Assembly: GCA_965223905.1 (NCBI GenBank)
Contig: CBDCXV010000011.1
Location: 640,001-704,000, forward strand
DNA: 64,000 nucleotides
Reading direction: 5' to 3'
Source: Candidatus Latescibacterota bacterium
Lineage (GTDB): Bacteria > Latescibacterota > UBA2968 > UBA8231
Below are positions 27,616 to 55,452 of the stretch, piece after piece. The notes under the pieces were generated by a model. It had not been told where the DNA came from, made no database searches, and worked only from the letters and a program-made list of their open reading frames with translations. Position 1 is the stretch's first letter. Every line of letters starts with the position of its first letter. The translations under genes were made by a program, and so were the position numbers.

Positions 27616-27617
27616 CG

Positions 27618-37546: not shown

Positions 37547-39170
37547 GTAACCGTTCAGTTCCCCTGGCAGGTTGGGGCGGGGGCGGAATGGTAGCAGGTT
37601 GACTATTAACGAATGGGGGAGTGGGTTGAAGGCAGCAGCGAGGGCGCCGGCTGCTTAGACACGGCGGCGTCACAGGCCATCCTGAGATAGTCGAGGACGT
37701 TGCGCTGCTGCTGGCGCAGGGTATCGCGCACCGTGAGCAGGCGCTCTACGAAACGGCTGCCTTCGGCACTGTGGGTGCCGAAGCTGGTGTGACGCCACAA
37801 CACGCCATGGCGAAGGGCTCGTTCGGCGTCGTTGTTGGTCGGCTCGACGCCGGGCCGGCGTGCGAAGGTCCACAGGGCCGGCCCGAGGTCGAGGAGATTG
37901 GCGCAGGTGGCCGCCGTCTTGGCGTCGGCGAACTGCTGCCCATAGCACAAATGAAACCGAAAGCGCAGACACAAATCGTCGATATAGTCCTGGAAGCGGG
38001 CGCGGGACAGGGTACCGTCGCGGACTTGATGCCACCAGGTAAACAGCTGCTCGCTGCGGTCCAACAGGTGTTGACCGACGCGCTCGGCCTCTCCGCCCCG
38101 GGCCACGAACTCCTCGAAGGCGCGCCGCAGGTGAGCCCAGCAGACTTGCCGGCGTCGCAGCGGCAGATGCGCGTAGGCCGAATAGCGATCGCAGCCGACC
38201 ACCGCCCGGTTATCCGCACCCAGCATCTCATCGACCCCGTCGCGGTTACGTCTTTTGCGGATGGAGAACACGGTGACGCCGTCCGTCACCGCGGTCCACA
38301 ACCAGGCCTTGGCGCGGCGCTGGCGCCAGCCGGTCTCGTCGACGTTGACGATGCCCTGTCGGCGAACGAAGGCGCGCGCCTCCTCGACCGCACCCGCCAG
38401 GGCCGTGGCCACTTCCTGTTCCAGCCGGCTGACGGTACCCAGCGACACCTCCAGGCCGAAGGCGTCGGACAACAGCGCCCGGATGTTGCGCTTGCTCAGC
38501 CGGTAGGCCCCGGCCAACAGGCCGACCCAGGCTTGCACGCTGGGACCGAAGGTGTGCCGCGATACGCCCTCGGGCCAACCGGCTTCGGTCAGGCGGTCGC
38601 AGTGACCGCAGCGCAGGGTGTGCAACTGATACTCGATGACCTCGGCCCGCACCGGCGGGATGACGACTGCCTGGTGACGCTGCGGATGGGGATCGTCTCC
38701 CGTCAACAGGTGCCCGCATCCGTGGCACGTACTCGGCTTGACCGGGATCAGTTCGTCCACCTGCTCCACCGATACCCACGAGCGGCCGTGTCCTTCGTGC
38801 CCGGGCTGTCCGCCCGGCGAGCGCCCCGAGGATCGGCGTCGGGAGGCGTCGGTGCGAGGCGAGGAGGAAGCGCCCGATTCCGACGAGGCGGCCCGGGCAC
38901 CGCGGCGGGACCGCCCCTTGCGGCGGGCCAATTCCCGCTCCAGCTCGGCGATCCGCGCCGTCTGTTGTTCCACGATTTGCTCGAGCTGGACAATGCGCTG
39001 ACGCAAGTCGCCTTCGGAAATCGCACTCTCAGGGGGTCTCTTCATGGGGTCGCCGTATCCAGGGAAATCTGCAACACACAACCGATTCCCGAAGATACCG
39101 ACGAACCCCAAAACCCGCGTAGGTATTTCTTTATATGCTCAAACTACTGCAGGGGGGACTGAACGGTTAC
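37547..39170 (-). mobile_element. Intact single-gene IS66-family element (ISBst12-like)
   Basis: Terminal IRs GTAACCGTTCAG / CTGAACGGTTAC; 8-bp TSD GTTGGCGC at 37539-37546 and 39171-39178. Confidence 0.95.
37606..39045 (-). CDS. IS66 family transposase
   Basis: GGQPGHEG, CxxC zinc finger, VDETGW, CWAHL, EPTNNDAERALR. Confidence 0.95.
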   Translation of the reverse strand: MKRPPESAISEGDLRQRIVQLEQIVEQQTARIAELERELARRKGRSRRGARAASSESGASSSPRTDASRRRSSGRSPGGQPGHEGHGRSWVSVEQVDELIPVKPSTCHGCGHLLTGDDPHPQRHQAVVIPPVRAEVIEYQLHTLRCGHCDRLTEAGWPEGVSRHTFGPSVQAWVGLLAGAYRLSKRNIRALLSDAFGLEVSLGTVSRLEQEVATALAGAVEEARAFVRRQGIVNVDETGWRQRRAKAWLWTAVTDGVTVFSIRKRRNRDGVDEMLGADNRAVVGCDRYSAYAHLPLRRRQVCWAHLRRAFEEFVARGGEAERVGQHLLDRSEQLFTWWHQVRDGTLSRARFQDYIDDLCLRFRFHLCYGQQFADAKTAATCANLLDLGPALWTFARRPGVEPTNNDAERALRHGVLWRHTSFGTHSAEGSRFVERLLTVRDTLRQQQRNVLDYLRMACDAAVSKQPAPSLLPSTHSPIR

Positions 39171-39516: not shown

Positions 39517-39792
39517 ATGCAAAACCTTTTTCTGTTGCTGGTCCTTATTTTGGCTGGCTCTGTCAGTCCGGGGGGATCCATATGCTGTCCCTTTCCCCTC
39601 CCTAACGGGCTTGAAGTGGGTGATCGTTGGACCTATTGGTGGAACTATCCGCATGGGCAGGACAGTTTAATCACCGTCGTTGGCAGCCACGAATTGGGGG
39701 AGCAGATTTATTTCTAATTGAATGACGGGGGCTTATACCGGGTAGATGAAGAGCATCGGACCTGGAAATACGATCCCATTTTGGAAAGCGAG
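39517..39792 (+). pseudogene. A-like secreted protein remnant (A0, divergent)
   Basis: AGGAGG RBS, signal peptide, LEVGDRWTY (cf. LAVGNSWTY), in-frame TAA 39715-39717, joined to B sequence at ~39793. Confidence 0.55.
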
Positions 39793-40941
39793 GCGGTGCA
39801 CCTGATCGACCGAGGCCGTCACCGTCACCAGTATCTGCTGGAACGGCGTGCTCACGACGGAAGCGATGGGATCTCATTCGGCCGCTACCTCCTTTATCAT
39901 GAGTGCGACGAAGATCCGGGCCTTTTTATCTGGAGGCGCAGTACTACATATCCTGCAACTTGGCCCACACACCGCATCAGGGACGCCCAGGAACGTCGGC
40001 AACCGCTGCTGATCGTGGCCGACGATCGGCGCATCCGGGACGCGCGCGATAGCATGCCGAAGCGGAATATAGATATATACCAGGATATGCTCTTCGATCC
40101 GTTTCCGGTGGTGGGAACCACCACTTTTGTGATTGGGAGCACCACTTTTTCCCAGGGGCCGGTCGATGCGGTTTATTCCGACAGGGCCGACATCGGTCTG
40201 CGCCAGACCACTTCTAGCGGGAACTTTGATGGCGAGCAGGTGGACCCAGGGGAAGTCGGCTTGGCGATCACCAACATCACCCGCACCGAGGTCACGGGCA
40301 GGGCGGATCGGATCAGAGTGGACGTCATCTTTCTTCCCAGGGCTCCGGCCAACTTCACCGTGGAGGGGGGCGACGGGGCGGCCACCCTGCGCTTGGACGA
40401 TCCGGACGACTTCAGCCTCGATAGATGGGAGTATCAACAACAAGGCGGGAGCGACTGGGTGGAGATTCCCGTCGACGACGACCAATTGACCCGTGACGAG
40501 GCGACGGGGACCCTCTCGTATCCGGTGATGGGCCTGACCCACGGGGAGATGTACAGCTTCTAGGTGCGGGCGCACAACGCCGCGGGGTGGGGGCCGGCCG
40601 CGGGGCCGGTCGAGGTGACGCTCAACACGGCGCCGGAGGTCCTGGGTGACCGGAGTCCCTCGTTCGATGAGAACAGCGAGCAGCCGGTGGCCACGTACAC
40701 GGCCACCGACGCGGAAGGCGACGCGATCACGTGGTCCCTGACGGGGGCAGATTCCGCGGCGTTCGATCTCCCCGCCGACGCTACAGGCAATTCGTTTGAC
40801 CTTACGTTCGGGACGGCGCCGAACTACGAAAATCCGACCGATGCCAACCTGGACACGGTCTACGAGGTCACGGTGGTGGCCACCGACGACGGTATGCCGC
40901 CGCTGCCTGCGAACTATAGTAACAGGACCAGGTGCGCATGA
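39793..40941 (+). pseudogene. C-terminal half of B protease (B0) with FN3 and cadherin-like domains
   Basis: Highly similar to B2/B3/B4; lacks the catalytic HExxH region; GAG>TAG at 40561-40563. Confidence 0.85.
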
Positions 40942-41010
40942 ATCACATCGGGCACCTGCGGTTTACAAATATTTCGTTAACGCGAACGATGGAAGAGAGG
41001 ATAAAGCATC

Positions 41011-41820
41011 ATGGAAACGAAGAAGATGATGATCAGCCTGACCCTGGCCGCCCTGCTCGGGCTGGGCGGGGCGCTGCCGGCCGCAGGCACCGACTATGCG
41101 GTTTCGGACTACCTGCCCCTGGCCGTGGGCAACTCCTGGACCTACGAACATTCTGTCGTTGGGAATCCACCTTACGATGACGATGAAAGGGACTTATGGG
41201 ACAGGACTCAATGGTCTACGTACACGGCACAATACCCTTCGATTCCCCAATTCACGATCACGGTGGAGCGCACCGAGGTGATCGACGGTAAGACCTATTT
41301 CGTGATCAGCGGCATGCCCGCCAACTGGCCGCCGGCGCCGCCGCATTTCATCGCCGGCAAGAAGCTGCGCTGGGAGGGCACCCACCTTATGGAACGCACC
41401 TCGGATGGAGAGCATGCGATCTTTCGCTTCGACGGCACTACCTCGACGATGGTCCCTTGGGAAGGAATGGATCTGTACGAGACGGAATACGCGATCCCGA
41501 CGGTAGAGGGGGACAATCAAGTCAAGGTGGTGGCGGGATGGGAACCGGTGCCATGGTATTCGTTCACGTTCTGGGGAAACGATGAAGGAGGGCGTGGGTG
41601 CGGCTTTCTTTGGGGGTATGGTTCCGGCGGATGCGGTTGGAGGATTAGCGGATCCGATGTTGCCATAGTATCCCAAAACCGTGTGGCTCCCCTTCGGGGG
41701 GTAATCGGCGGCAACCGGGTGGAATTTTCCGATGCGTTGATCCCCACCTCTTCGTCGTCCTCTTCCTGGGGCAGAATCAAGAATACGTTTTTCGCCCATG
41801 ACGGGAGGACCAGCCCATGA
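41011..41820 (+). CDS. Cassette gene A1: secreted protein (PLAVGNSWTY motif, SSWGRIK tail)
   Basis: Signal peptide, 269 aa, paralog of A2-A4; stop overlaps B1 start (ATGA). Confidence 0.85.
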   Translation: METKKMMISLTLAALLGLGGALPAAGTDYAVSDYLPLAVGNSWTYEHSVVGNPPYDDDERDLWDRTQWSTYTAQYPSIPQFTITVERTEVIDGKTYFVISGMPANWPPAPPHFIAGKKLRWEGTHLMERTSDGEHAIFRFDGTTSTMVPWEGMDLYETEYAIPTVEGDNQVKVVAGWEPVPWYSFTFWGNDEGGRGCGFLWGYGSGGCGWRISGSDVAIVSQNRVAPLRGVIGGNRVEFSDALIPTSSSSSSWGRIKNTFFAHDGRTSP

Positions 41821-42368
41821 GTCGCCCTTTCTTGTTCATCGCCCTCCTGCCGTTCCTCGGGGCGCACTCGGTCCTGGCCACTGGGTCCCCAGACACCTGG
41901 GATCGATCAATGACTCTGGACGTGGTCCTGGTCACATTTCAAGATGCGACCACGGCCAACCCCATGACCCCTATGTCCTGCGTGAGCAATAACACGCCTC
42001 AGGTATGTGATTATCATAACCATGACCTTCCCTACGGGTACAACGCGAATAGGGAGCCGTCGAGCTCAAGTTACCTGCTGCGGGACTTCGAGCGGCTTTT
42101 CAGTGGTGGCTACGGTACCCTGCCGGATTTTGTCGGGACCAGTCAGACGGTCGCCGATGACAACCATACGCTGCCGGAGGTGTTCGGCAGTGTGCGGGCC
42201 TACTTCGATTCCGTATCCAACGGGATGCTCGAACTGAACGTGCGCATGATCAATCCTGCTGATTCGCAGGGCAATCCCCGCTGGATCGAGCTGCCGCGCA
42301 CCAAAGCCGAATACGCCCGGATTACCATAAATAATCGAACAAGGCGGCCTGATGACGGGTACGCATGA
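41817..42368 (+). pseudogene. Cassette gene B1: N-terminal fragment of the M6-like protease
   Basis: LDVVLVTFQD, EVFGSVRAYFDSVSNG as in B2-B4; ends after RTRRPD at the junction motif. Confidence 0.8.
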
Positions 42369-42440
42369 ATCACACCAAGAGCGGACAGTTATCTCCTTTA
42401 AGGACAGTAATCAAAAATTAAAAGGACGGAGGAAAGCATC

Positions 42441-43250
42441 ATGGGAAAGAAGAAAATGATGGGCATTAGCCTGACCTTGGCCGCTCTGCTCGTAGCAAGC
42501 TGGGCGCTGCCGGCCGCAGCCACCGACTACGCGGCCTCGAACTACCTGCCGCTGGCCGTGGGCAACTCGTGGACCTACGGACATTCTGTCGTAGGGCTTA
42601 CGCCCTACGATGAGGATAAGAGCCATTGGCCTACGTACACGGCGCAGTTCCCTAAGAGACCCCAATTCACGATCACGGTGGAGCGCACGGAGGTGATTGA
42701 CAGCAAGACCTACTTCGTGATCAGCGACATGCCGGACCACTGGCCGCCGGCGCCGCCGCATTTCATCGTCGGCAAGAAGCTGCGCTGGGAAGGCACCCAC
42801 CTTATGGAACGCACCTCGGATGGAGAGCATGCGATCTTTCGCTTCGACGGCACTGCCTCGGACTACACTACCTCGACGATGGTCCCTTGGGAAGGAATGG
42901 ATCTGTACGAGACGGAATACGCGATCCCGACGGTAGAGGGGGACAATCAAGTCAAGGTGGTGGCGGGATGGGAACCGGTGCCATGGTATTCGTTCACGTT
43001 CTGGGGCAACGATGAAGGGGGGCGTGGATGCGGCTTTGTTTGGGGGTATGGTTCCAACGGATGCGGTTGGGGGATTAGCGGATCCGATGTTGCCGTGCTA
43101 TTCGAAAACGATGCGACTCCCCTTCGGGGGGTAATCGGCGGCAACCGGGTAGAATTTTCCGATGCGTTGATCCCCACCTCTTCGTCGTCCTCTTCCTGGG
43201 GCAGAATCAAGAATACGTTTTTCGCCCATGACGGGAGGACCAGCCCATGA
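42441..43250 (+). CDS. Cassette gene A2: secreted protein
   Basis: 269 aa; 3' half nearly identical to A1; ATGA overlap with B2. Confidence 0.85.
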   Translation: MGKKKMMGISLTLAALLVASWALPAAATDYAASNYLPLAVGNSWTYGHSVVGLTPYDEDKSHWPTYTAQFPKRPQFTITVERTEVIDSKTYFVISDMPDHWPPAPPHFIVGKKLRWEGTHLMERTSDGEHAIFRFDGTASDYTTSTMVPWEGMDLYETEYAIPTVEGDNQVKVVAGWEPVPWYSFTFWGNDEGGRGCGFVWGYGSNGCGWGISGSDVAVLFENDATPLRGVIGGNRVEFSDALIPTSSSSSSWGRIKNTFFAHDGRTSP

Positions 43251-44272
43251 GTCGCCATTTCTTATGGATCGCCCTCCTGCCGTTCCTCGGGGCGCACTCG
43301 GTCCTGGCCACTGGGTCCCCAGACACCTGGGATCGATCAATGACTCTGGACGTGGTCCTGGTCACTTTTCAAGATGCGACCACTGGAACCGGGGTATATC
43401 ACTTGCACGACCGGCCCTACGGCACCAATCCCGGGGAGTCGGCCGATTCCATATACACGTTGCGCGACTTCGAGCGGCTCTTCAGTGGCGGGTACGGCGT
43501 CCTGCCGGATTTTGTCGGGACCAATCAGACGGTGGGTGACGGCCATGTGCTGCCGGAGGTTTTCGGCAGTGTGCGGGCCTACTTCGATTCCGTATCCAAC
43601 GGAATGTTCCAGTTGAACGTGCGCATGATCAATCCTGCTGACTCGGAGGGTTATCCCCGCTGGATCGAGCTGCCGCGCCCCAAGGCCGAATACGCCACGA
43701 TTATGATAAATGATCGAACCCGTCGGCCTGATGGAGGATTACGGGGGGATCTTTTCTGGGACGATGCCTACGAGACGGCGATGGACTCGGTGCGCTGCTG
43801 GAACCCTTCTTCGAACGTCCCGGGGGCAAACTGCGGGGTTTCGGCGATTTCCACGTACGCAATTACCGGAATCGGCCCTGGCGCCACCGTGGCTCAGCGA
43901 GTGGGGCACAAGGTGGCCTACCTGTATTCGGGAGCCACCTTCAAGGGGAGATCTCCTGCCGGTCTGCTGCATCCGAATGCCGATCTCCATACAGAGACCC
44001 ATCCGAGTAGTTCAGATGAAGTCGGTTACCGCTACGTGATGGGGGAGCGGGAGGGCAGCCATAACGATGACAACCGAACCATTGACGAGTTCGCTCCGAT
44101 TTACACCCATGCCCACGAAATCGGCCACCTGTTGGGGCTTTATCACGGTGGGGGCGGGGTAAGTGTTCCCAATCCGTACATGCCTGGCTCAACCTCTACC
44201 GCCCGGGGGGGGCAATATGCTCCACTGGGTGTTGATGCAAGGCAACGGAGCGGGGCCGGAAGTGATAAATAA

Positions 44273-45735
44273 GGCTATATCCGGATTCTTCAAAGGGCAT
44301 TTTATAGCGTTTACAGAGGGAGATTTCGAGGGTTTCACACTGTACGGAATCGGGCCGGAATCTGCGCCGGGATATCGAGGTCTCCGACACACAGATAAAT
44401 CAGGTCGGCAAAGGCATCCAGAGATTTAAATCCACTGGCGCGGTTCTTGAGCATGCGCACGACGCGGTTGAGGCCTTCGGCGGCGGCGTTGGTCAGGTGC
44501 GTACCGATGAAGGCGGTGATGCCGGCCGCCTGCTTTCGCACGGTGCCGACGAACCTGCGCAAGGGTTCCAGGCGGCTGCGCAGGGCCGCCGTCGTCCACT
44601 TCTTGAGGAAGCGTTCGGCGGCCCAGCGCGCCTTGTAGCGCCAGAAGTGCTCGAACTCGTCCTTCAGGCGCCAGGCGCGGTAGATGCGGCGGTTGGCCTT
44701 CTCCAGGGTTTGGAGCGTGCGCCGGTCCTTTCGCGAGCGCTGGGCGGAGTGATGCAGCAGCACCCAGCGCAGGCCCTTGAGCAGCTTGCGGTCCTCGCCG
44801 CAGGCTTGGCGCCACTGCTCCTTGCGCACCTCGTCGACGGCTTCGTTGAGGGCCTTGACGACGTGGAACCGGTCCAGGACCAACTCGGCGTTGGGACAGT
44901 GCCGGCCGATGGCGCCGATGAAGGTCTCGCTCAGGTCGCAGCAGGCCCAGCGGATGCGGTCCTTCTGGGAGGCGCTGAGATGGTCGCGGAAGAACGCGTC
45001 GATGGTTTCCCGTGCCTTGCCCTGGCCGACCCACACCACGCGGGAGCGTTCCAGGTCGTAGACCAGGGTGGCATATTTATGGCCCTTGGCGTAGGAGATC
45101 TCGTCGATGCCCACCGTCTTCAGCCCGCGGATGCGATGCCCCGTACGCCGGCGCTCGATGAGCCGGTGCAGCTGATCCGACAGCGTCGACGGGGCCAGAC
45201 CCAGCAGGCGTGCGGCGGCGGCCTGCGTCATCCACTGGCAGTAGGTCAGCAGCAGGTATTCGAAGCGGTAGCTGACCCGGGCCGAGCGCGCCGCCCAGGG
45301 GGCCTCCTCGAGGCGACGGCCGTGGGTAGGGCAGCGGATCTCCCGGGGGGCGTGGTGCAGCCACACGGTACGGCCGCCGACGCGGACATCGCGCCAGCGG
45401 CGGGGCTCCAGGACCTGAACGATGCGGCCCCGGAGCCCGCACTCGGGACAGCGGCAGCCGTTCTTTTGGGGCTTGACCTTGACGACGACAGCCGCTTCTT
45501 CCCCGCGTCCTTCGAACCACACGCTCACCGCGCGAAACCCCTTGAAGTTGAGCAGCTTGGAGACGAACTTCATAGCGGTCATAGGTCGCCTTCTCTCTTT
45601 CCCTTTGGGGAGTGCTTGATGGGGATACACCAAGCATAGGGAACGACCTATGGCCTTGTCATGTACTCAGAGGAACAGCAAAGGCTCAGGTACTGCCGTA
45701 CTTACGTTTCGGCGTTGAAAAACCCGGATAGAACC
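44273..45735 (-). mobile_element. ISL3-family insertion sequence
   Basis: Imperfect IRs GGCTATATCCGGATTCTTCAA / GGTTCTATCCGGGTTTTTCAA (rc); 8-bp TSD ATAAATAA at 44265-44272 and 45736-45743. Confidence 0.95.
44335..45582 (-). CDS. ISL3 family transposase
   Basis: CPECG zinc finger, VGIDEIS, LDRFHVVK, TNAAAEGLN..GF; start 45582 or upstream. Confidence 0.95.
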   Translation of the reverse strand: MTAMKFVSKLLNFKGFRAVSVWFEGRGEEAAVVVKVKPQKNGCRCPECGLRGRIVQVLEPRRWRDVRVGGRTVWLHHAPREIRCPTHGRRLEEAPWAARSARVSYRFEYLLLTYCQWMTQAAAARLLGLAPSTLSDQLHRLIERRRTGHRIRGLKTVGIDEISYAKGHKYATLVYDLERSRVVWVGQGKARETIDAFFRDHLSASQKDRIRWACCDLSETFIGAIGRHCPNAELVLDRFHVVKALNEAVDEVRKEQWRQACGEDRKLLKGLRWVLLHHSAQRSRKDRRTLQTLEKANRRIYRAWRLKDEFEHFWRYKARWAAERFLKKWTTAALRSRLEPLRRFVGTVRKQAAGITAFIGTHLTNAAAEGLNRVVRMLKNRASGFKSLDAFADLIYLCVGDLDIPAQIPARFRTV

Positions 45736-47088
45736 ATAAATAACGGCTACCATACGCCCTACCGCTCCTGCCCCCCTCCAATCAATCCCTTCTACCAGTG
45801 GGACCTTGGGTGGATCACCCCGACCCCTATCACCGGATCCCAAGACAATTATGAAATAGAGCCCGGCACGGTGCAGCTTATCACCCGGGGCGATATCGAG
45901 TACCCTGCTGGAGCGTCGTTCGCACGATGGTCAAGGCCCCCCTCACGACAGCGGAAGAGGAATCTCATTCGGCCGCTACATCCTTTACCATGAGTACGCC
46001 GAAGATCCGGGTCTTTTTATCTGGAGGCGCAGTACTACATATCCTGCAACTTGGACCACACACCGCATCAATAACGCCCAGGAACGTCGGCAACCGCTGC
46101 TGATCGTAGCCGACGACCGTCGTATTGGCAACGCGCGCGATCAAGAACAAAACCCGAGTATACCCGAATACCAGGACATGCTGTTCGATCCTTTTCCGGT
46201 GGTGGGAACCACCACTTTTACGATTGGGAGCACCACTTTAACCCAGGGGCCGGTCAATGAGGTTTTTTCCGACAGGGCCGCCATCGGTCTGCGCCAGACC
46301 ACTTCTAGTGGGAACTTTGATGGCGAGCAGGTGGACCCCGGCGAGGTGGGGTTTGCGGTCACCGACATTACCCGCACCGAGGTCACGGGCAGGGCGGACC
46401 GGATCAGAGTGGACGTCATTCTTCTTCCCTCGGCTCCGTCGAACCTGACGGTGGCAGCCGGCGGCGGCGCGGCCATCCTGAGCTGGGACGATCCGGACGA
46501 CTTCAGCCTCGATAGATGGGAGTATCAACAACAGGGCGAGAGCGACTGGGTGGAGGTTCCCGTCGACGACGACCAATTGACCCGTGACGAGGCGACGGGG
46601 ACCCTCTCGTATCCGGTGATGGGTCTGACCCACGGGGAGATGTACAGCTTCGAGGTGCGGGCGCACAACGCCGCGGGGTGGGGGCCGGCCGCGGGGCCGG
46701 TCGAGGTGACGCTCAACACGGCGCCGGTGGTTTCAGGACCTGGAACCCCCTCGTTCGATGAGAACGGCGAGCAACCGGTGGCCACGTACACGGCCACCGA
46801 CGCACAGGAGGACGGGATCACCTGGTCGCTGACGGGGGCAGATTCCGCGGCGTTCGATCTCCCCACCGAGGCTACGGGCAATTCGTTTGACCTTTCGTTC
46901 CGGTCAGCGCCCGACTACGAGAATCCGACCGATGCCAACCTGGACACGGTCTACGAGGTCATGGTGGTGGCCACCGACGACGGTGTGCCGCCGCTGCCTG
47001 GGAGCTAACAGGAACAGATGCGCATGAATCACCCGGATCGGAGACCCTAAACTTTAACTCTTCAATTTGAACGATGGAGGAAAGCATC

Positions 47089-47838
47089 ATGGAAAAGAAA
47101 AAAATGATGGGCATCAGCCTGACTCTGGCCGTCCTGCTCGGTCTGGGCGGGGCGCAGCCGGCCGCGGCCACGGACTACCAAGCTTCGGACTACCTGCCCT
47201 TGGCGGTGGGCAACTCGTGGACCTACGAGCACGATTACTACGATCCAGGCATAGACGAAAGCCAATGGTCTGCATACACGGCTCAGTATCCCTCGGACCC
47301 TCAGTTCACGATCACGGTGGAGCGCACCGAGGTGATCGACGGCAAGACCTACTACGTGCTCAGCGACATGCCGGACCACTGGCCGCCGGCGCCGCCGCAT
47401 TTCATCGCCGGCAGGAAGCTGCGCTGGGAGGGCACCCACCTGATGGAGCGCACCTCGAACGGCGAGCAGGCGATCTTCCGCTTTGACGGGACGGACTACC
47501 AAGTCTCTACGGATGAGGGGGATTTCCAGGTCACGGTGAGAACGTCGTATTCAAATCCAGTACCAAAGTATGGTTTCGACTTTAATGGTGGAGTAGGGGG
47601 TGGAGTCCGATTCCTTGCGGGCTATGGTATCGAGAGAGCTGTTCAAATTCGCTTCAGTATCGATGTCACAACGTTCATTAACGAGGTAAGACCAGTCCGG
47701 GCGGTGATCGGGGGACGTCAGGTGGAACATGCCGACGCGGAGAAGACCCCGATCGACACCTCTTCCTCATCGTCTTCCTGGGGTGGGGTGAAGCAGACGT
47801 ATTTCGCCCATGCTCCTGAAGGGAGGACCAGCCGATGA
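47089..47838 (+). CDS. Cassette gene A3: secreted protein
   Basis: Same constant blocks as A1/A2, different variable segments, SSWGGVK tail; ATG 47089 after GGAGG. Confidence 0.85.
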   Translation: MEKKKMMGISLTLAVLLGLGGAQPAAATDYQASDYLPLAVGNSWTYEHDYYDPGIDESQWSAYTAQYPSDPQFTITVERTEVIDGKTYYVLSDMPDHWPPAPPHFIAGRKLRWEGTHLMERTSNGEQAIFRFDGTDYQVSTDEGDFQVTVRTSYSNPVPKYGFDFNGGVGGGVRFLAGYGIERAVQIRFSIDVTTFINEVRPVRAVIGGRQVEHADAEKTPIDTSSSSSSWGGVKQTYFAHAPEGRTSR

Positions 47839-50063
47839 GTCGCCCTTTCTTGTGCATCGCCCTCCTGCCGGTGCTCTGGGCGTATTCGGCTGAGGCCGCC
47901 GGGTCAGCTTTTACCGGGAGGGCGTCTACTACCGCAGAGACGTTCCCCTGTACGCTGGACGTGGTGCTGGTCACTTTTCAAGATGCGACCACCGGAAGCG
48001 GGAATTATCACTTGTATGACCGGCCTTACGGCACCAACCCCGGGGAACCGGCCGGTTCCAGCTACACGCGGAGCGACTTCGAACGGTTGTTCGTCGGGGA
48101 CACGGTCACCGTGGCAGGCGGCCATGTGCTGCCGGAGGTGTTCGGCAGTGTGCGCGCCTATTACGACTCCGTATCCAACGGGGACTTCGAGCTGAACGTG
48201 TGCATGATCAACCCGGCCGGTGAGGACGGCTATCCCCGCTGGATCGAGCTGCCGCACACCAAGGCCCACTATGCCGAGATAACCAGCATTCCTCTTAGCA
48301 GAACGCACCAAGAATTCTTCGACGAGCTCTACGACACGGGGATGGACTCGGTGCGCTGCTGGAACCCTACGCCATTTCCAACCGATCCTGACCCGCCGAC
48401 CTGCGGGAGGAATTCAGCGGTAACCGGGTACGCCATAACCGACATCGGCCCTGACAACTCCGTGGATCAGCGGCTGCGCCACAAGGTGGTCTACCTGTAT
48501 TCCGGTGCCACCTTTAAAGGCAGAGATCCCGCCGGCCTGCTGCATCCGCAAGCGGACTTGCATACCCGGACCAATCCGAGCCGATCATCTCACGTCGGCT
48601 ACCGCTACGTGATGGGGGAGCGGGAGGGCAGCCACCGGAATGAAAACCGCAGCATTGACGAGTTCGCCCCGATTTACACCCACGTTCACGAAATCGGTCA
48701 TTTGCTGGGCCTCCCTCACGGCGGGGGTAAGGTGAGTGGCTCCAACCCCAATCCTTACGTGCCTGGCACGAACTATGCAACTCCCAAGGGGGCCAATCTG
48801 CTGGAATGGACCTTGATGCAAGGCAACGGGTCCGGGCCGGAAGTGGAAGAAAACGGCTACCATACGCCCTATCGCTCCTGTCCCAATCCGATTAATCCCT
48901 TTTATCTGATGGACTTGGAATGGATTGACCCGCCCACCCCTATCACCGAATCCCAGGACAATTTCGAAATAGGGCCCGGGACGGTACACCTGATCGACCG
49001 GGGACGTCACCAGTATCTGCTGGAACGGCGTTCCCACGACGGAAGCGATGGAATCTCATTCGGCCGCTACATCCTTTTTCACGAGTTCCAAGAGGATCCG
49101 GGTCTTTTTATCTGGCGACGAAGAACCTTTGCAACCCAACCGCTGCTGATCGTGGCCGACGGCCGGCGCATCCGGAACGCGCGCGATCAAGAACAAAACC
49201 CGAATATCCCCGAATACCAGGACATGCTTCTTCGATCCATTTCCGGTTGAAGCTACCCCTGTGACGGGAGGGAGCGTCAATTTTACCCAGTCGGCGGTCG
49301 ATGCGGTTTATGACAACATGGCCGACGTCGGTCTGCGCCAGACGACGGAGAATGAAGATCCCCCGGGGGATGCTGGTCGCCAAACAGATCCCATGGAGGT
49401 GGGTGTGGGTTTTGCGCTCACCAACATCACCCGCACCGATGTCACGGGCAGGGCGGATCGGATCAGGGTGGACGTCACTTTTCTTCCCAGGGCTCCGGCC
49501 AACCTCACCATAGAAGCCGGCGACGGCTCGGCCATCCTGCGCTGGGACGATCCGGACGACTTCACCCTCGATAGATGGGAGTATCGGCAGGGCGGGGGCG
49601 GCTGGGTGGAAGTTCCCGTCGACGACGACCAATTGATCCGCGTCGAGGCGACGGGAACCTTCAGGTATCCGGTGGACGGTCTGACCAACGGGGAGATGTA
49701 CAGCTTCGAGGTGCGGGCGCACAACGCCGCGGGGTGGGGCCGGTGGCGGGGCCTGTCGAGGTGACGCTCAACACGGCGCCGGTGGTTTCAGGTCCTGAGA
49801 CCCCCTCGTTCGATGAGAACAGCGAGCAGCCGGTGGCCACGTACACGGCCACCGACGCGGACGGAGACGCGATCACCTGGTCCCTGACGGGGGCGGATTC
49901 GGCGGCGTTCGATCTCCCCACCGACGCTACAGGCAATTCGTTTGACCTTTCGTTCGGGACGGCGCCGAACTACGAGCAACCGGCCGATGCCAACCTGGAC
50001 ACGGTCTACGAGGTCACGGTGCAGGCCACCGACGACGGTATGCCGCCGCTGCCTGCGAGCTAA
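47835..50063 (+). pseudogene. Cassette gene B3: M6-like metalloprotease-FN3-cadherin with two single-base indels
   Basis: HEIGHLLGLPH, WTLMQG; +1 T at ~49228 and -1 G at ~49737 relative to paralogs (may be sequencing errors). Confidence 0.8.
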
Positions 50064-50143
50064 CAGGACCAAGTGCAGCATGAATCACATCGGGCACCTG
50101 CGGTTTACGAATATTTCGTTAACGCGAACGAAGGAGGAGCAAC

Positions 50144-50908
50144 ATGGAAGCGAAGAATAAAATGAACATCAGCCTGACCCTGGCCGTCCTGCTCGGACTC
50201 GGCTGGGCGCTGCCGGCCGCGGCCACCGACTATGCGGTTTCGGACTACCAGCCGCTGGCCGTGGGCAACTCGTGGACCTACGAGCATTCTCACTCTGGCC
50301 TGGATAGAAGCCAATGGTCCGCTTACACCGCACAGTTCCCTAGGACACCCCAGTTCACGATCACGGTGGAGCGCACCGAGGTGATCGACGGCAAGACCTA
50401 CTACGTGATCAGCGACATGCCGGACAACTGGCCGCCGGCTCCGCTGCTTTTCATCGCCGGCAGGAAGCTGCGCTGGGAGGGCACCCACCTGATGGAGCGC
50501 ACCGGGGACGGCGAGCAGGCGCTCTTCCGCTTTCCCGCCGAGACGGACTACGAGGTCTCAACGGACGAAGGGCTTATTGAGGTCTCGGGGCTCATGTGGA
50601 GCAGTCATCCTGTGCCGTTATATACGTTCGAATATCCTGTTCCCAGCCTGGTGGGGGGAATAGGGGGAAGCGGGTTCCTTGCGGGGTATGGCATGGATGG
50701 ATGCGGTGATGAAATCTTCTCAATCGATGTCCCCCTATTTGGAAACGGTGTATTTGCGATCCGGGCGGTGATCGGGGGGCGTCAGGTGGAATATGCCGAC
50801 GCTTGGAGGGGGAGGACCCCGATCGACACCTCTTCCTCATCGTCTTCCTGGGGTGGGGTGAAGCAGACGTTGTTCTCCCATGCTCCTGAAGGGAGGAACA
50901 GCCGATGA
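50144..50908 (+). CDS. Cassette gene A4: secreted protein
   Basis: 254 aa, AGGAGG RBS, tail nearly identical to A3, ATGA overlap with B4. Confidence 0.85.
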   Translation: MEAKNKMNISLTLAVLLGLGWALPAAATDYAVSDYQPLAVGNSWTYEHSHSGLDRSQWSAYTAQFPRTPQFTITVERTEVIDGKTYYVISDMPDNWPPAPLLFIAGRKLRWEGTHLMERTGDGEQALFRFPAETDYEVSTDEGLIEVSGLMWSSHPVPLYTFEYPVPSLVGGIGGSGFLAGYGMDGCGDEIFSIDVPLFGNGVFAIRAVIGGRQVEYADAWRGRTPIDTSSSSSSWGGVKQTLFSHAPEGRNSR

Positions 50909-53900
50909 GTCGCCCTTTCTTGTGTATCGCCCTTCTGCCGCTGCTCTGGGCGAGTTCTGTTGAGGCTGCCGGGTCGCGGAATACTTGGAGATCCCCCACT
51001 ACCCTGGACGTGGTGCTGGTCACTTTTCAAGATGCGACAACTGGAACCGGGGTTTATCACTTGCACGACCGGCCCTACGGCACCAACCCCGGGGAGCCGG
51101 CCGACTCCAGCTACACGTTGCGCGACTTCGAGCGCCTCTTCAGTGGCGGGTACGGCGTCCTGCCGGATTTTGTCGGGACCAATCAGACGGTGGGTGGCGG
51201 CCATGTGCTGCCGGAGGTGTTCGGCAGTGTGCGGGCTTACTTCGACTCCGTATCCAACGGGATGTTCCAGTTGAACGTGCGCATGATCAACCCGACCGAT
51301 GAGGACGGCTATCCCCGCTGGATCGAGCTGCCCGAAACCAAGGCCCACTATGCTGAGATCTCCAGCACTTTAAGTAGACGCCGAACTTTCTTTAATGGAC
51401 TCTACGCCACGGCGATGGACTCGGTGCGCTGTTGGAACCCTACGCCATTTCCAACCGATCCTGACCCGCCAACCTGCGGGAGGAATTCAGCGGTAACCGG
51501 GTACGCCATTACCGACATCGGCCCTGACAACACCGTGGCTCAGCGGCGGCGCCACAAGGTGGTCTACCTGTATTCCGGTGCCACCTTCAAGGGAAGATCT
51601 CCTGCCGGCCTGCTGCATCCGCAAGCGGATTGGCACACAAGGACCACCCCGGGTATGGCCGACGACGTAGGTTACCGCTACGTGATGGGGGAGCGGGAGG
51701 GCAGCCATCGGAATGACAACCGAACCATTGACGAGTTTGCTCCGATTTTCACCCATGCCCACGAAATCGGCCACCTGTTGGGCCTCTACCACGGCGGGGG
51801 TTTGAAGAACGGACCTAATCCGTACATGCCTGACTCAACCTATATGAATGACGGGGCGGCCAACCTGCTGGACTGGGGTTTGATGCAAGGCGACGGAGCC
51901 GGGCCGGTAGTGGTAAACAGGGGCTATCATTCGGTCTATCGCTCCTGTCCCAATCCGATTAATCCCTTCTATCTGATGGACTTGGAGTGGATCGACCCGA
52001 CCGAGGTCATCGAGATCATTGGGAATCAGGACGACTACGAAATAGCGCCCGGGACGGTGCACCTGATCGACCGGGGCGCTCACGAGTATCTGCTGGAACG
52101 GCGTGCTCACGACGGGATAGACGGGATCTCATTCGGCCGCTACCTCCTTTATCATGAGTACGACGAAGATCCGGGTCTATTTATCTGGCGGCGTGAGACA
52201 TTGCCTAGATCCACGACTGCCCGAGAACGTGCGCAACCGCTGCTGATCGTGGCCGACGGCCGGCGCATCCGGGACGCGCGCGATAACGAGCCGACCCGGG
52301 ATATACATCGATACCAGGATATGCTCTTCGATCCGTTTCCGGTGGTGGGGGACACCACATTTATGATTGGGACCACCACCTTCACCCAGGGGCCGGTCAA
52401 TGAGGTTTATGACAACATGGGTGGCGCCGGTCTGCGCCAGACGACAGCTACCGGGAGGGATGGCGGTGAGCAAACAGATCCCATGGAGGTGGGTTTTGCG
52501 CTCACCAACATCACCCGCATCGATGTACCCGACGGGGCGGATGAGATCACGGTGGACGTCATCTTTCTTCCCAGGGCTCCGGCCAACCTCACCGTGGAAG
52601 CCGGCGATGGCTCCGCCATCCTGACTTGGAACGATCCGGACGACTTCACCCTCGATAGATGGGAGTATCGGCAGGGCGGGAGCGGCTGGGTGGAGGTTCC
52701 CGTCGACGACGACCAATTGATCCGCGTCGAGGCGACGGGGACCCTCTCGTATACGGTGATGGGCCTGACCAACGGGGAGATGTACAGCTTCGAGGTGCGG
52801 GCGCACAACGCCGCGGGGTGGGGGGCGGGCTCGGGACCTTTCGAGGTGACCCTCAACACCGCGCCGGAGGTCATGGGTGAGGCAAGTCCCTCGTTCGATG
52901 AGGACAGCGAGTCGACGGTGGCCACGTACACGGCCACCGACGCGGAAGGGGACGCGATCACGTGGTCGTTGACGGGGGCGGATGCCGCAGCTTTCAGCCC
53001 GCCCTCCGACGCAACGGGCAATTCGTTTGACCTTTCGTTTCGGTCACCGCCGAACTACGAGAATCCGACCGATGCCAACCTGGACACGGTCTACGAGGTC
53101 ACGGTGGTGGCCACCGACGACGGTATGCCGCCGCTGGATGCGAGTTATCCGGTGACGGTGCCCTTGAACAACGTCGACGAAGAGGGCACGGTGACTTTGT
53201 CCACGACTACGCCCCTGGTGGGTCATCCGTTGGGGAGCGCGCTCGGTGAACCGGATGGGGGCGTGACCGATCTCCGGTGGCAGTGGCAGCGCCGGTTGAG
53301 TGGTACGAAGAGGTGGGAAGACGTCTCTTCGAGCCGGGCCCGGTCCGAGGAATTCCATCAAGGGCAGGGGTATACGCCGAAACCGGGGGATGTGGGGTAT
53401 GAACTGCGGGCGACGGTCGGCTATACCGACGTGCATGGCCCGGGCAAGAGGGCGCAGAGCCCCGAGTCCGCCCCGGTGGTGGACGTGCCTTCGGCGCCTC
53501 GGAACCTGGAGGCGGCTGCGGGGAACGCCCGGGTGGATCTGAGGTGGGATCCGCCGCTCACCGACAACGGTTCGGCGCTGAGGGGGTATGGGTATCGCTA
53601 CGGCAGCGGCGGCAGTTGGACCCCGGGGACTCTGGGGCTGACGCCGAGTCACACGATCGATCAGTTGACCAACGGCACGGCCTACACCTTCGAGCTATGG
53701 GCGGTCAACGGGGCGGGGAACAGCGACCCCACCTCGGTGACGTCGACGCCGCTTGGAGTTCCCGACCCGCCGGTATTGAGCGTGGAGGAGGGGGACGGCC
53801 GGGTGCGGCTGCGGTTTGTACTGGGGTCGGACAACGGGTCGGGGATCACGCGCCGGGACACGCGGGTGTATCGCCTGGTCGACGGGGCCAGGCTGTGGCC

Positions 53901-54282
53901 GTTCGGTGAGCTGTGGTTCGAGACGGCCGTCGACCCGAGCTCGTCGGATTACCCGCGTCGGTTCACCTCGGGGTACAGCGAGGGCTGGCAGGGTTTGACC
54001 AACGGGTTGGAGTACACCTTCGAGGTGCGGACGGTCAACGAGGTGGGGACCAGTGCCCTCGCCCGGGTCACGGCCACGCCCCGGGGGTCTCCTCCTCCCC
54101 GGCCGGTGACGGTCACCTACGGGGCGTCGTCCTACGCGGCGCAGGAAGGGGGCGAGGCGGCGACGGTGCGGCTTTCGGCGCCGGCGTCTCAGGCGCTGCG
54201 CATCCCGATTGCGGTCAATCCCCCGTCGGGGGACTACAGCCGTGATCCGGGCAGCGGCCACCCCTTGTCCTTCTCCCGTTGA
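50905..54282 (+). CDS. Cassette gene B4: secreted M6-like metalloprotease with FN3, cadherin-like and Ig-like stalk; ends in a truncated Calx-beta-like domain
   Basis: 1125-aa open frame, signal peptide, HEIGHLLGLYH, three LTNG..Y.FE FN3 motifs, PNYENPTD..D.VYEVTV cadherin-like motif; cut off by an IS5 remnant. Confidence 0.88.
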   Translation: MSRPFLCIALLPLLWASSVEAAGSRNTWRSPTTLDVVLVTFQDATTGTGVYHLHDRPYGTNPGEPADSSYTLRDFERLFSGGYGVLPDFVGTNQTVGGGHVLPEVFGSVRAYFDSVSNGMFQLNVRMINPTDEDGYPRWIELPETKAHYAEISSTLSRRRTFFNGLYATAMDSVRCWNPTPFPTDPDPPTCGRNSAVTGYAITDIGPDNTVAQRRRHKVVYLYSGATFKGRSPAGLLHPQADWHTRTTPGMADDVGYRYVMGEREGSHRNDNRTIDEFAPIFTHAHEIGHLLGLYHGGGLKNGPNPYMPDSTYMNDGAANLLDWGLMQGDGAGPVVVNRGYHSVYRSCPNPINPFYLMDLEWIDPTEVIEIIGNQDDYEIAPGTVHLIDRGAHEYLLERRAHDGIDGISFGRYLLYHEYDEDPGLFIWRRETLPRSTTARERAQPLLIVADGRRIRDARDNEPTRDIHRYQDMLFDPFPVVGDTTFMIGTTTFTQGPVNEVYDNMGGAGLRQTTATGRDGGEQTDPMEVGFALTNITRIDVPDGADEITVDVIFLPRAPANLTVEAGDGSAILTWNDPDDFTLDRWEYRQGGSGWVEVPVDDDQLIRVEATGTLSYTVMGLTNGEMYSFEVRAHNAAGWGAGSGPFEVTLNTAPEVMGEASPSFDEDSESTVATYTATDAEGDAITWSLTGADAAAFSPPSDATGNSFDLSFRSPPNYENPTDANLDTVYEVTVVATDDGMPPLDASYPVTVPLNNVDEEGTVTLSTTTPLVGHPLGSALGEPDGGVTDLRWQWQRRLSGTKRWEDVSSSRARSEEFHQGQGYTPKPGDVGYELRATVGYTDVHGPGKRAQSPESAPVVDVPSAPRNLEAAAGNARVDLRWDPPLTDNGSALRGYGYRYGSGGSWTPGTLGLTPSHTIDQLTNGTAYTFELWAVNGAGNSDPTSVTSTPLGVPDPPVLSVEEGDGRVRLRFVLGSDNGSGITRRDTRVYRLVDGARLWPFGELWFETAVDPSSSDYPRRFTSGYSEGWQGLTNGLEYTFEVRTVNEVGTSALARVTATPRGSPPPRPVTVTYGASSYAAQEGGEAATVRLSAPASQALRIPIAVNPPSGDYSRDPGSGHPLSFSR

Positions 54283-54420
54283 CGATCCCGGTTCTTTGGT
54301 CGAAGGAGAGGCCTGAACCATCGTCGCGTCCATGATAGTACCCTCCCTGACCAGCAAACCCCGGTACGAGGGTCGGGACTCCCGGTGCATCCAGGGGGAT
54401 CGAGCTGGTGATCTGCTATG
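54273..54420 (-). mobile_element. Degraded IS5-family transposase remnant
   Basis: GLLVREGTIMDATMVQASPSTK, then (frameshifted) NRDRQR, matching the IS5 GTIVDAT..PSSTKN..RD motif. Confidence 0.7.
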
Positions 54421-54429
54421 TGTGAGGTG

Positions 54430-54678
54430 TGTCGCAAAATGCGACTCGCGTTCCAAATTGCAACACATTCCCCGTCCTGCTTCTTATTCTTTTCTATAAC
54501 TTATTGATAAACAAACAGTTGCAGTTTCTTCTGCCACAGGGCATTCGGTCTTCGGAGCGATGTACGTGTCGCATTCTGCAACGCTTCCCCAAATCTTGCA
54601 AGGAGACTCACATACGATATAACTCTTGCATTTGCAATAAGTTAGTCCGCTTTCTAACAGATTGGCACAGGATTTGCA
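54430..54678 (+). promoter_or_regulatory. Sigma54 promoter module copy 1 (UAS palindromes, IHF site, -24/-12)
   Basis: TGGCACAGGATTTGCA 54663-54678; IHF consensus TATCAATAAGTTA (rc) 54497-54509; GTCGCA-N3-TGCGAC-type palindromes at ~54430, ~54450, ~54567. Confidence 0.85.
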
Positions 54679-54741
54679 GACAAGTCTTGATATGCAAGAC
54701 TCTTCCCGTCGCTGCTGAACGATTGAGGAGAGGAAAACACC

Positions 54742-54890
54742 ATGGAAACGAAAAGATGATGGAAACGAAAAAGATGATCAGCCTGACCCTGGCCGAGCTG
54801 CTCGCAGTGAGCTGGGCCTGGGGGGCCGTAGCTGCCGACTGTGAGGCCGCGGACTACCTGCCGCCGGCCGTGGGCAACTCGTGTATTTAC
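54742..54890 (+). pseudogene. Cassette gene A5 N-terminal remnant
   Basis: METKKMISLTLA..ADYLPPAVGNSCIY; duplicated start segment; homology to A genes lost after ~54890. Confidence 0.75.
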
Positions 54891-55203
54891 AAAGATTCTG
54901 CCCATTCGGCCATTGGGGATACCAAGGCTGCCCAGGCGGGGCTGATTCTGGAGACGTACGCGGATTCAGCCGGTGACCTCGCCGAGGCGCCGCCGGCAGG
55001 GGTGATCCTGAAAGGCGGTCAGATCGACAGCAGCACGGTGGAGGTGGGCGCCTTTGATGACTCCCTCCTGAATGAAGGAGGAAAAATGAGGCTCCTCCGG
55101 AGAATCTGTGGGTTGAGGAGGGGAGGCCTTGACGATGGGGATAGAGGGTCGAGACGGCCTGCGCGTCGAGGGGATCGATGCGGGATCCCCAATGCGTGAG
55201 GAC

Positions 55204-55452
55204 TGTCGCAAAATGGGACATTCGTTGAAAAATGCGACACATTCCCCGTCCCGTCTCCGAATATTTCCTATAACTTGTTCAAAAACTTACAGTTGAAGTC
55301 TCCCCGCAACAGGGCATTCGGTCGTCGGGCGCGATGGGCGTGTCGCATTTTGAAACACTTCCCGAAATTTTGCCAGGAAACCCACATACGATATAACTCC
55401 CGCATATACCGTATGTTAGTCTGTTTTCAAAAAAATTGGCACAGAATTTGCA
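55204..55452 (+). promoter_or_regulatory. Sigma54 promoter module copy 2
   Basis: TGGCACAGAATTTGCA 55437-55452; TGTCGCAAAATGGGACA, GTTGAAAAATGCGAC and TGTCGCATTTTGAAACA palindromes; colinear with copy 1. Confidence 0.8.

Follow-up and report, generated by a model that had tools for sequence, protein, structure and literature searches.

In the systems of serralysin-type proteases with their periplasmic inhibitors (Inh/AprI) and of staphopains with staphostatins, a protease is encoded in one operon with a small beta-barrel inhibitor, an arrangement that protects the producer, and inhibitors of the Inh/AprI and staphostatin type are about 100–110 residues long. In the KLIKK-peptidase/potempin system of Tannerella forsythia, potempins are encoded just upstream of several peptidases and inhibit these downstream enzymes, which belong to several catalytic classes (PMC9890683). 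The present analysis concerns a 64,000-nt stretch of the genome of a Candidatus Latescibacterota bacterium (GenBank assembly GCA_965223905.1, contig CBDCXV010000011.1, positions 640,001–704,000 of the forward strand; hereafter the window), in which a small exported gene, A, immediately precedes a gene for a large secreted metalloprotease-like protein, B, four times in succession. The explanation preferred here, which is plausible but stops a little short of probable, is that the region is a mostly pseudogenised tandem array of a module conserved in Latescibacterota and Gemmatimonadota and that A acts as a partner of the protease.

Tandem array of coupled A-B pairs

Mapping by tblastn with A4, A1 and B4 as queries showed that at 39.5–55 kb of the window four A-B pairs indeed stand head to tail on the + strand, in a tandem array of which most is broken (Table 1). 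The order along this strand is a B0 remnant, A1-B1, A2-B2, A3-B3, A4-B4, regulatory repeat 1, an A5 remnant, regulatory repeat 2, a secreted protein of 328 residues (P328) and a canonical M6 peptidase gene, and an IS66 transposase gene on the − strand stands at the left edge of the array, ahead of B0. All four pairs that an earlier annotation of this DNA (the original prediction) had described were found, and ATGA joins the A stop to the B start at each of the four junctions. The remnants proposed in the same annotation were recovered for B0 and A5 by tblastn and hidden Markov model (HMM) searches; A0 (39517–39717) was rejected as an A remnant, a six-frame search giving a match of 17 residues to the A profile with 6.4 bits and an E value of 0.14.

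The A copies are 55–83% identical in pairwise tblastn comparisons (E 1e-70 to 1e-145), and in a four-sequence alignment A3, A2 and A1 share 73%, 62% and 65% identity with A4, respectively. B2 could be traced against B4 in the open reading frame (ORF) pieces 43247–44317, 45736–45903 and 45905–47038, and B3 in the pieces 47835–49232, 49225–49752 and 49731–50060. Since the units share 70–84% DNA identity, they are old paralogues rather than near-identical strain alleles. A concatenation of strain alleles during assembly was judged unlikely in view of this identity, the different lesions of each unit and an insertion sequence (IS) that is flanked by a target duplication.

Literature searches found no paper that names this arrangement, in agreement with the original prediction, which did not recognise it as a named system. 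Searches on metalloproteases of Latescibacteria and sponges and on M6, InhA and the type IX secretion system (T9SS) returned no relevant paper, and a term search of PMC12993501 gave no mention of such a module.

Conservation of the pair in relatives

Relatives were collected by searching species-representative genomes once with the A alignment, which led to 29 loci (L001–L029) that come mostly from metagenome-assembled genomes (MAGs) of Latescibacterota, with some from Gemmatimonadota and three motif-only matches in other phyla. L027–L029, which match only the N-terminal motif, were set aside, and the counts below refer to the 26 loci L001–L026. B-type sequence directly follows A in 14 of them, complete or near-complete in 11 (L001, L004, L005, L006, L008, L009, L010, L012, L015, L017 and L022) and as stubs only in three (L002, L003 and L014), demonstrating that the proposed A-B linkage is conserved beyond this genome. 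In five more loci another peptidase stands beside an A-family gene, namely a canonical M6 enzyme (L024, L025), an S8 enzyme (L023, L026) or an M9 collagenase (L007), and a canonical M6 gene also accompanies an A-family gene in L015.

The mode of coupling is conserved as well. Among the 16 junctions printed for the relatives, ATGA or TGATG was found in L001, L003 (both junctions), L004, L005, L006, L009, L010, L012, L014, L017 and one junction of L022, the other L022 junction being TGAATG, with the ATG straight after the stop. At least two A-family ORFs lie within 20 kb in L003, L009, L012, L013, L015, L016, L018, L020 and L022, and comparable multi-copy arrays are present in chromosome-level records (L003, L022, L013/L015).

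Protein A, a new family of exported beta-rich proteins

A is a new family of exported, beta-rich proteins of about 250 aa. Pfam gave no match for A1–A4 and NCBIfam none for A1, A3 and A4; among 34 A-family members no Pfam match was better than E 0.068, the A profile found nothing better than E 0.13 among PDB sequences, and a single-sequence search with A4 gave no match there. The earlier description of A as a secreted partner of no named family is thus upheld by these three collections. Judged by eye, the N-termini of A and B alike begin with basic residues, continue into a hydrophobic core and close with an AxA-like stretch, in line with the signal peptides claimed for both genes. The mature A protein is about 225 residues long, with neither a Cys in the signal region nor a lipobox.

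An AlphaFold2 model of A4 calculated from a 34-row alignment (predicted local distance difference test 84.4, predicted template modelling score 0.76) begins with the signal helix and about 13 beta-strands (residues 43–216), which a Ser-rich linker of low confidence connects to a short C-terminal helix; it replaced a first model from a four-row alignment, which was unusable (predicted local distance difference test 35). Foldseek returned nothing at E ≤ 0.001 from the PDB for this model, and the top matches, with template modelling (TM) scores of about 0.3, were the Parabacteroides lipoprotein 4fvs, the YmcC-like 3fzx, LolA proteins and fatty-acid-binding proteins (FABPs). A language-model atlas provided two leads, an unnamed Krumholzibacteriota cluster (0.89) and a DUF3108_like cluster (0.76).

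The best-conserved parts of A are the mature N-terminus, LPLxVGNxWTY (...DYLPLAVGNSWTY), and W236, G237 and K240 in a C-terminal tail of the form [ST]WGx[ILV]K (SWGxVK), which lies 3–14 residues from the end. When the window and the 29 loci were read from stop to stop and the resulting 2242 ORFs of 100 aa or more were scanned for the motif xWGx[IVLM]K, 51 occurrences were obtained, 45 of which lie 3–14 residues from the C-terminus. Seven small tail-bearing ORFs fall outside the reach of the A HMM (Table 1), one of them with a CBM9-like match, and the first of the three in L015 directly precedes a canonical M6 gene. The C-terminus of P328, ...SLGAIKHSFPVP, resembles the A tail, and the A domain of L007 carries a dockerin-like segment and a T9SS sorting domain in the place of the tail. 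Because the tail occurs on ORFs other than A, has a similar counterpart on P328 and is exchanged in L007, it behaves as a module. No description of it was found in the literature, searches with the written motif giving unrelated papers only, and a check of A against the sorting-signal models of NCBIfam gave no match.

Protein B, a divergent M6-like metalloprotease

The product of B is a large secreted protein with FN3, cadherin-like and Calx-beta-like domains behind the catalytic domain. Judged from its sequence, B is a divergent M6-like enzyme with a metzincin-type motif, which by curated thresholds is not a member of M6. HEIGHLLGL(Y/P)H occurs in B2, B3 and B4 with LMQG about 31 residues downstream, as had been claimed, the LMQG of B2 lying in a shifted frame. 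In B4 the motif HEIGHLLGLYH occupies residues 286–296 of an N-terminal enzyme domain of about residues 30–480. An alignment of 12 B-family sequences, all of which contain the extended metzincin motif HExxHxxGxxH, showed that H284, H286, E287, H290, G293, H296 and M327 are invariant. M327 lies in the LMQG stretch, 31 residues past H296 and followed by a Gln (Q328) in at least 90% of the 12 sequences, and is by sequence only a candidate for the Met-turn.

The assignment as divergent M6-like follows from the agreement of this alignment with three further results. The NCBIfam M6 domain model TIGR03296 matched B4 (E 3e-6), B3 (1.5e-8) and the L010 orthologue (1.6e-12), the scores of 27.2 bits for B4 and 34.9 bits for B3 lying below the curated cutoff of 110.8. 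Profile-profile alignment by hhalign of the B family (12 sequences) with the canonical M6 family (five sequences) gave 97.4% and E 1.3e-11 over 147 columns from HExxH on, and the best match of B in the language-model atlas (0.96) was a cluster with 27% of members bearing Peptidase_M6. The B profile also found karilysin and serralysin weakly among PDB sequences (E 0.007–0.013), at the level of the motif HEIGHLLGxxH only. These results sustain the earlier view of B as M6-like. Pfam PF05547 (Peptidase_M6) matched none of the B copies, and single-sequence PDB searches with residues 1–498 of B4 and with the canonical M6 protein gave no matches. The third-ligand region of B reads HEIGHLLGL(Y/N/H/P)H and is not of the GLPE type, whereas HEYGHxMGLPE is found in the canonical copies of the window, L015 and L025. 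As for the accessory domains named in the original prediction, FN3 was confirmed (PF00041, E 8e-23; the sole Pfam match in B4) and the cadherin-like domain, in the tail of B2, stayed below threshold (PF00028, E 0.006; 17.3 bits, cutoff 28.8).

Sigma-54 control of the module

In the relatives, the module carries its own control genes and sites. Immediately upstream of A, and on its strand, a gene for a sigma-54 activator is found in L004, L005, L006, L009, L011, L017 and L026, with remnants elsewhere, and Pfam Sigma54_activat matches were obtained in L026 and L012. The activators are 331–362 aa long, and since their AAA+ domain begins at about residue 25–45, they lack a sensor domain; in L009 a beta-propeller is fused to one activator copy. 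The interval between activator and A contains three to five tandem palindromes, an AT-rich stretch and then a −24/−12 element, TTGGCACG-N4-(A/T)TGC, which is placed 128–163 nt before the A ATG in L001, L002, L004, L005, L006, L010, L011, L012 and L017; the exact form TGGCAC-N5-TTGC occurs upstream of A in L026 only. With the activator gene, the activator repeats and the −24/−12 element together, the module of the relatives has the make-up of a putative sigma-54 operon.

The tandem palindromes differ by locus, being GTCGTTCAAAATGAACGA, GGGCAAAAAGTTGCCCC or GGGGAAAAATTTCCCC (L004, L005, L006, L001, L002, L017) with an A-rich centre, and it looks as if activator and predicted binding site diversified together between paralogous modules. 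The leader of about 120–150 nt contains three conserved predicted hairpins, the last of which pairs with the Shine-Dalgarno sequence of A; covariation is slight, with two of 26 pairs compensatory (L001, L002, L004–L006, L010–L012 and L017). Just upstream of A, several relatives also encode a Reg_prop beta-propeller protein with a T9SS C-terminal sorting domain (Table 1), similar to the propeller fused to the activator in L009 and perhaps a third part of the module or its sensor.

The window retains little of this equipment. A search of the 64 kb for an activator gene gave none (E ≤ 1e-8), and the spacers before A1–A4 (69–80 nt), which resemble the final part of the leader of the relatives, contain no −24/−12 element. 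The exact TGGCAC-N5-TTGC occurs twice only in the window, at 54663 and 55437, both times within a regulatory repeat of 315 bp whose two copies are 77% identical and lie before the A5 remnant, with the element 82 nt ahead of the A5 ATG, and before P328. Predicted sigma-70 promoters and terminators in the array number at or below shuffled expectation, with none in the spacers. The original prediction had noted neither the sigma-54 control of the relatives nor its lack before A1–A4, nor the C-terminal tail of A, nor the canonical M6 module further downstream. The array of this window is probably silent or nearly so.

Table 1. Positions of the features described in the text, given in window coordinates unless a locus of a relative is named
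Feature	Position	Strand	Description
IS66-family transposase	37606..39111	−	Pfam DDE_Tnp_IS66 1.5e-33; left boundary of the array
Partial second IS66 copy	39135-39602		ORF 39135-39605 63% identical to 37897-38187
B0	39796..40917	+	5'-truncated remnant, B4 residues 385-748; tblastn 75% identity, E 2e-159
A1	41011..41820	+	Intact, 269 aa; A-family HMM E 6e-98
B1 stub	41817..42368	+	183 aa; homologous to B4 residues 1-160 only; without HExxH
A2	42441..43250	+	Intact, 269 aa
B2 5' part	43247..44272	+	B4 residues 1-346; has HEIGHLLGLYH
ISL3-family IS inside B2	44273..45735	−	Transposase 44335-45633
B2 3' part	45736..47008	+	B4 residues 337-758; FN3 and weakly cadherin-like domain, own stop
A3	47089..47838	+	Intact, 249 aa; alternative ATG at 47074 gives 254 aa
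B3	47835..50063	+	B4 residues 1-747 in three frames; has HEIGHLLGLPH
A4	50144..50908	+	Intact, 254 aa; copy used for structure modelling
B4	50905..54282	+	Open 1125-aa ORF; signal peptide, M6-like catalytic domain, FN3, further beta-domains
Regulatory repeat 1	54368..54681	+	Palindromes TGTCGCAnnnTGCGACA at 54430 and 54567; −24/−12 at 54663-54677
A5 remnant	54759..54914	+	First 53 codons of A; tblastn E 3e-8, HMM E 2e-6
Regulatory repeat 2	55144..55455	+	TGTCGCAnnnTGCGACA-type palindromes at 55204 and 55341; −24/−12 at 55437-55451
P328	56100..57086	+	Secreted 328-aa protein of no known family; in the position of A before canonical M6
Canonical M6-like metalloprotease (HEYGHIMGLPELYD)	57121..64000	+	NCBIfam TIGR03296 1e-21; Pfam fn3 and Calx-beta; giant tail
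Tail ORFs unmatched by A HMM	L007 2671-3345; L013 7959-9035; L015 16505-17281, 18779-19465, 19452-20144; L018 10758-11276; L019 13372-14283
Reg_prop beta-propeller genes	L003 8592-9812; L010 7969-9537, 18570-20114; L012 1538-3115, 7975-9549; L014 8495-9536

Decay of the array and selection

The claim that all four A genes are open and most B copies damaged was borne out: A1–A4 are intact ORFs (lengths in Table 1), B0–B3 are dead, and B4 keeps a complete catalytic domain and has lost its C-terminal end. B0 has an in-frame TAG at 40561–40563 in the position of a Glu in B4. After residues 1–160, B1 joins the normal inter-unit spacer before A2, which points to an internal deletion. B2 carries three lesions, the first of which arises where eight consecutive G (44205–44212) shift the frame; seven G would restore it, and the run could reflect slipped-strand variation or a homopolymer sequencing error. 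The second is an ISL3 element (Pfam DDE_Tnp_ISL3 1.5e-66, NCBIfam transpos_ISL3 2.6e-87) with inverted repeats at 44270–44293 and 45715–45738 and an 8-bp duplication, ATAAATAA, at 44265–44272 and 45736–45743, and the third is a further 1-nt frameshift near 45903. In B3 the frame changes by +1 near 49225 and by −1 near 49740. B4 is truncated inside a Calx-beta-like domain, recognised by its similarity to a domain of the downstream giant protein; its homology ends at 54240 and resumes in no frame. Full-length B relatives have 804–2068 aa. Since B0, B2 and B3 each have a stop of their own at about residue 750, followed by the conserved spacer, and a relative of 804 aa exists (L022), the short form of B may be natural.

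The substitution pattern dates these breaks. Pairwise ratios of non-synonymous to synonymous substitution (dN/dS) among the A copies are 0.40–0.55, with 0.21–0.43 in the N-terminal and 0.53–0.86 in the C-terminal half, and the B pieces compared with B4 give 0.31–0.67. As these ratios are below 1, the B copies were functional for most of their divergence; both genes were constrained through most of it, and the breaks in B are recent relative to it. The original prediction had called the system diversifying, which does not agree with the ratios below 1; these indicate selection ranging from purifying to relaxed and show, at this resolution, no sign of positive selection. The C-terminal halves of A1 and A2 (41400–41820 and 42830–43250) differ by a dS of 0.05 only, whereas that of their N-terminal halves is 0.30, and values of 0.30–0.35 were obtained for these N-terminal halves and the adjacent 5' parts of B; the contrast within A1/A2 suggests recent local gene conversion between units.

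The survival of A beside broken B copies had been likened to immunity genes that outlive their toxins. Six small lesions in 9.6 kb of B lead to an expectation of about 2.0 in the 3.2 kb of A, for which the probability of finding none is about 0.135, or about 0.045 without B4. In the relatives, five cases of an intact A with a B stub (L002, L003 twice, L014 and L022) stand against two of an A stub with an intact peptidase, and B is 3–8 times longer than A. Because gene length predicts about as much, the asymmetry needs no special explanation, although it is compatible with selection on A. What the array in this window records is mostly duplication and later decay.

Neighbouring module and setting of the array

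P328 and the canonical M6 gene form a second module of the A-B layout just downstream of the array. P328 was considered as a distant member of the A family and rejected, as the A HMM misses it and tblastn in the loci found nothing; the likeness lies in position and tail. The canonical M6 gene runs through three frames (57121–58722, 58548–62321 and 62243 to the end of the window), with shifts near 58.6 and 62.3 kb, and may be broken or mis-assembled. Regulatory repeat 2 lies about 650 nt before the start of P328, and a small ORF with a signal-peptide-like start was noticed by eye near 55.97 kb; this gap may be a long leader or hold an unrecognised small gene. Within the giant protein, 62806–64000 is a 306-bp tandem repeat of 3.9 copies with 99% identity, the last copy of which is frame-shifted and runs off the window.

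The G+C content of the window is 0.65–0.70 over most 2-kb bins and falls to 0.55–0.62 in an island at about 40–58 kb, which is bounded or interrupted by the IS66 and ISL3 elements; several Latescibacterota loci have 0.59–0.62 overall. Acquisition of the island by transfer is possible. A tRNA scan of the window found none. Elsewhere, at 24772–27804 on the − strand, the window encodes a 1010-aa protein in which Peptidase_MA_2 occurs together with PD40 beta-propeller repeats and a domain of the Omp85 type, an unusual mix unrelated to the array.

Possible function of A

The preferred explanation, with A as a protease partner, would run as follows. In the relatives, the A-B pair would be transcribed from the sigma-54 promoter, A would be translated first and in step with B, and both products, presumably exported by Sec, would meet in the periplasm. 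There A may bind B as a cognate latency or escort factor, a suggestion by analogy that we advance with reserve, and, in the manner of potempins and serralysin inhibitors, would prevent the protease from doing harm before export; through the shared tail, A may attach to a common envelope component. For the window, the duplicated segment was probably promoter-less and composed of a leader of about 70 nt, A and residues 1–750 of B, so that the array copies would have depended on a single upstream promoter. That promoter end would since have been replaced by IS66 sequence, and the sigma-54 promoters remaining in the window would be only those before the A5 remnant and the canonical M6 module.

Several observations weigh against this explanation. 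The loci were found with two peptide patterns from A itself, which biases the linkage towards close relatives, and an adjacent peptidase is missing in seven of the 26 loci. In three of these seven, L019–L021, the A-family genes stand near proteins with leucine-rich repeats (LRRs) or beta-propellers that carry FlgD_ig, at gaps of 49–568 nt. The A domain of L007, with its own dockerin-like segment and T9SS domain, suggests a role outside the cell, and an active-site inhibitor specific for one class is made less likely by the pairing of one homologous fold with M6-like, S8 and M9 enzymes. The fold of A has no convincing match, the best Foldseek match being 4fvs_A (E 3e-3, TM 0.33), and peptidase inhibitors are absent among the top matches listed, where LolA-, YmcC- and FABP-like carriers appear instead. 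On the side of decay, the frameshifts of B3 and the G-run frameshift of B2 could be assembly errors. A complex prediction for A4 residues 28–254 (34 rows) with B4 residues 25–480 (12 rows) scored 0.18 and 0.01 against a mark of 0.32 and is evidence neither way.

The main rival holds that A, rather than being an inhibitor, assists very large secreted proteins in general with export, surface display or tethering, that its tail is a signal by which it is docked or sorted through shared envelope machinery, and that proteases are the commonest large cargo. It is unlikely in our estimation, yet it accommodates several of the results directly: the tail on seven ORFs outside the A family, one of them before the canonical M6 gene of L015, and a similar end on P328; a range of neighbours from M6-like, canonical M6, S8 and M9 enzymes to LRR and beta-propeller proteins, many with FlgD_ig or T9SS domains; the replacement of the tail by a T9SS sorting domain in L007; and the weak fold matches to LolA-like carriers. 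What speaks against it is the spacing, since overlaps or gaps of at most 42 nt occur with peptidase genes only and the gaps to other genes are those of 49–568 nt given above. Moreover, B-type proteins have no recognisable T9SS domain, and no known sorting-signal model matches A.

That A is a secreted protein in its own right, which binds for example a hydrophobic ligand or substrate fragment, is merely co-regulated with B in a sigma-54-controlled feeding or host-interaction regulon and forms no complex with it, appears improbable. The weak structural likeness of A to LolA, FABP and the YmcC/DUF3108-like fold would fit such a role, as would the tandem A-only runs without a peptidase in L013, L018 and L020. 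The stop/start overlap kept in more than 10 genomes, however, usually marks products needed in fixed proportion, and A is the upstream gene in 19 of 20 A-peptidase pairings, L024 being the exception.

A polymorphic toxin/immunity array, with diversifying B weapons and A protectors retained after loss of B, is very improbable: every B is damaged beside four open A genes, intact A with a B stub recurs in the relatives, and the C-terminal half of A is variable (dN 0.43–0.47 for A1/A2 against A3/A4, compared with 0.11–0.15 in the N-terminal half), but the lesion asymmetry is close to target size, dN/dS reaches at most 0.86 in any segment, A1–A4 are without the promoter type used by the module elsewhere, and the analogy drawn in the original prediction is contradicted by an A that is exported and encoded upstream and by a B whose enzyme domain is N-terminal with a conserved catalytic core instead of a swappable C-terminal tip.

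A wider proposal can be made, for which we claim little confidence: A and the other small proteins with a [ST]WGx[ILV]K tail might form a new class of partners of giant secreted enzymes in Latescibacterota and Gemmatimonadota, in which the barrel would provide latency or escort, the tail would be a new, short signal for sorting or docking that an envelope component reads, and expression would be governed by a sensor-less sigma-54 activator with its private palindrome.

Comparison with known systems

Latescibacterota and Gemmatimonadota are largely uncultured, and the giant FN3, cadherin-like and Calx-beta proteins of their MAGs are usually just labelled 'eukaryote-like'. The module offers a concrete unit for surface protease deployment, consisting of an activator, a sigma-54 promoter, a small partner and a protease, together with a partner family of about 250 residues for which Pfam and NCBIfam hold no model and a short tail common to unrelated small proteins. 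The array of the window itself matters less here than the module in the relatives. Should A turn out to inhibit or escort the protease, the potempin principle of a producer guarding itself would extend to new phyla with a new fold.

Among known systems, polymorphic toxin arrays with orphan modules resemble the locus in their tandem diverged copies, with small genes open and large ones truncated, and differ in the reversed gene order, the exported partner, the N-terminal enzyme domain and the lack of a non-synonymous excess. With the M6 enzymes (immune inhibitor A, InhA), B shares the HExxH core and profile-profile homology, whereas its scores lie below the curated cutoffs and its motif is HEIGHLLGLxH. 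The serralysins recur as weak best PDB matches of the B profile, with karilysin, at the motif level noted above, although B lacks repeats-in-toxin (RTX) or type I secretion system (T1SS) features and aligns with M6-like domains. The Inh/AprI and staphostatin inhibitors are unrelated to A in sequence, and their arrangement is analogous.

The nearest described arrangement is that of the KLIKK peptidases and potempins. Potempins are there 98–132-residue outer-membrane lipoproteins with a five-stranded oligonucleotide/oligosaccharide-binding (OB) fold or an up-and-down one of eight strands (PMC9890683), whereas A has 249–269 aa, 13 predicted strands, no lipobox Cys and the SWGxVK tail, and its inhibitory activity is hypothetical. 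No potempin sequence or fold matched A among the Foldseek matches listed or the PDB profile results. The KLIKK/potempin pairs are co-transcribed according to the same source (PMC9890683), and here the coupling seen in the genes is the ATGA overlap at four junctions. Both systems share a small exported gene of beta-barrel type immediately upstream of a large multidomain secreted peptidase, several such pairs clustered in one genome and peptidase partners of different catalytic classes (PMC9890683), and the hosts belong to the same broad group using T9SS-type sorting domains.

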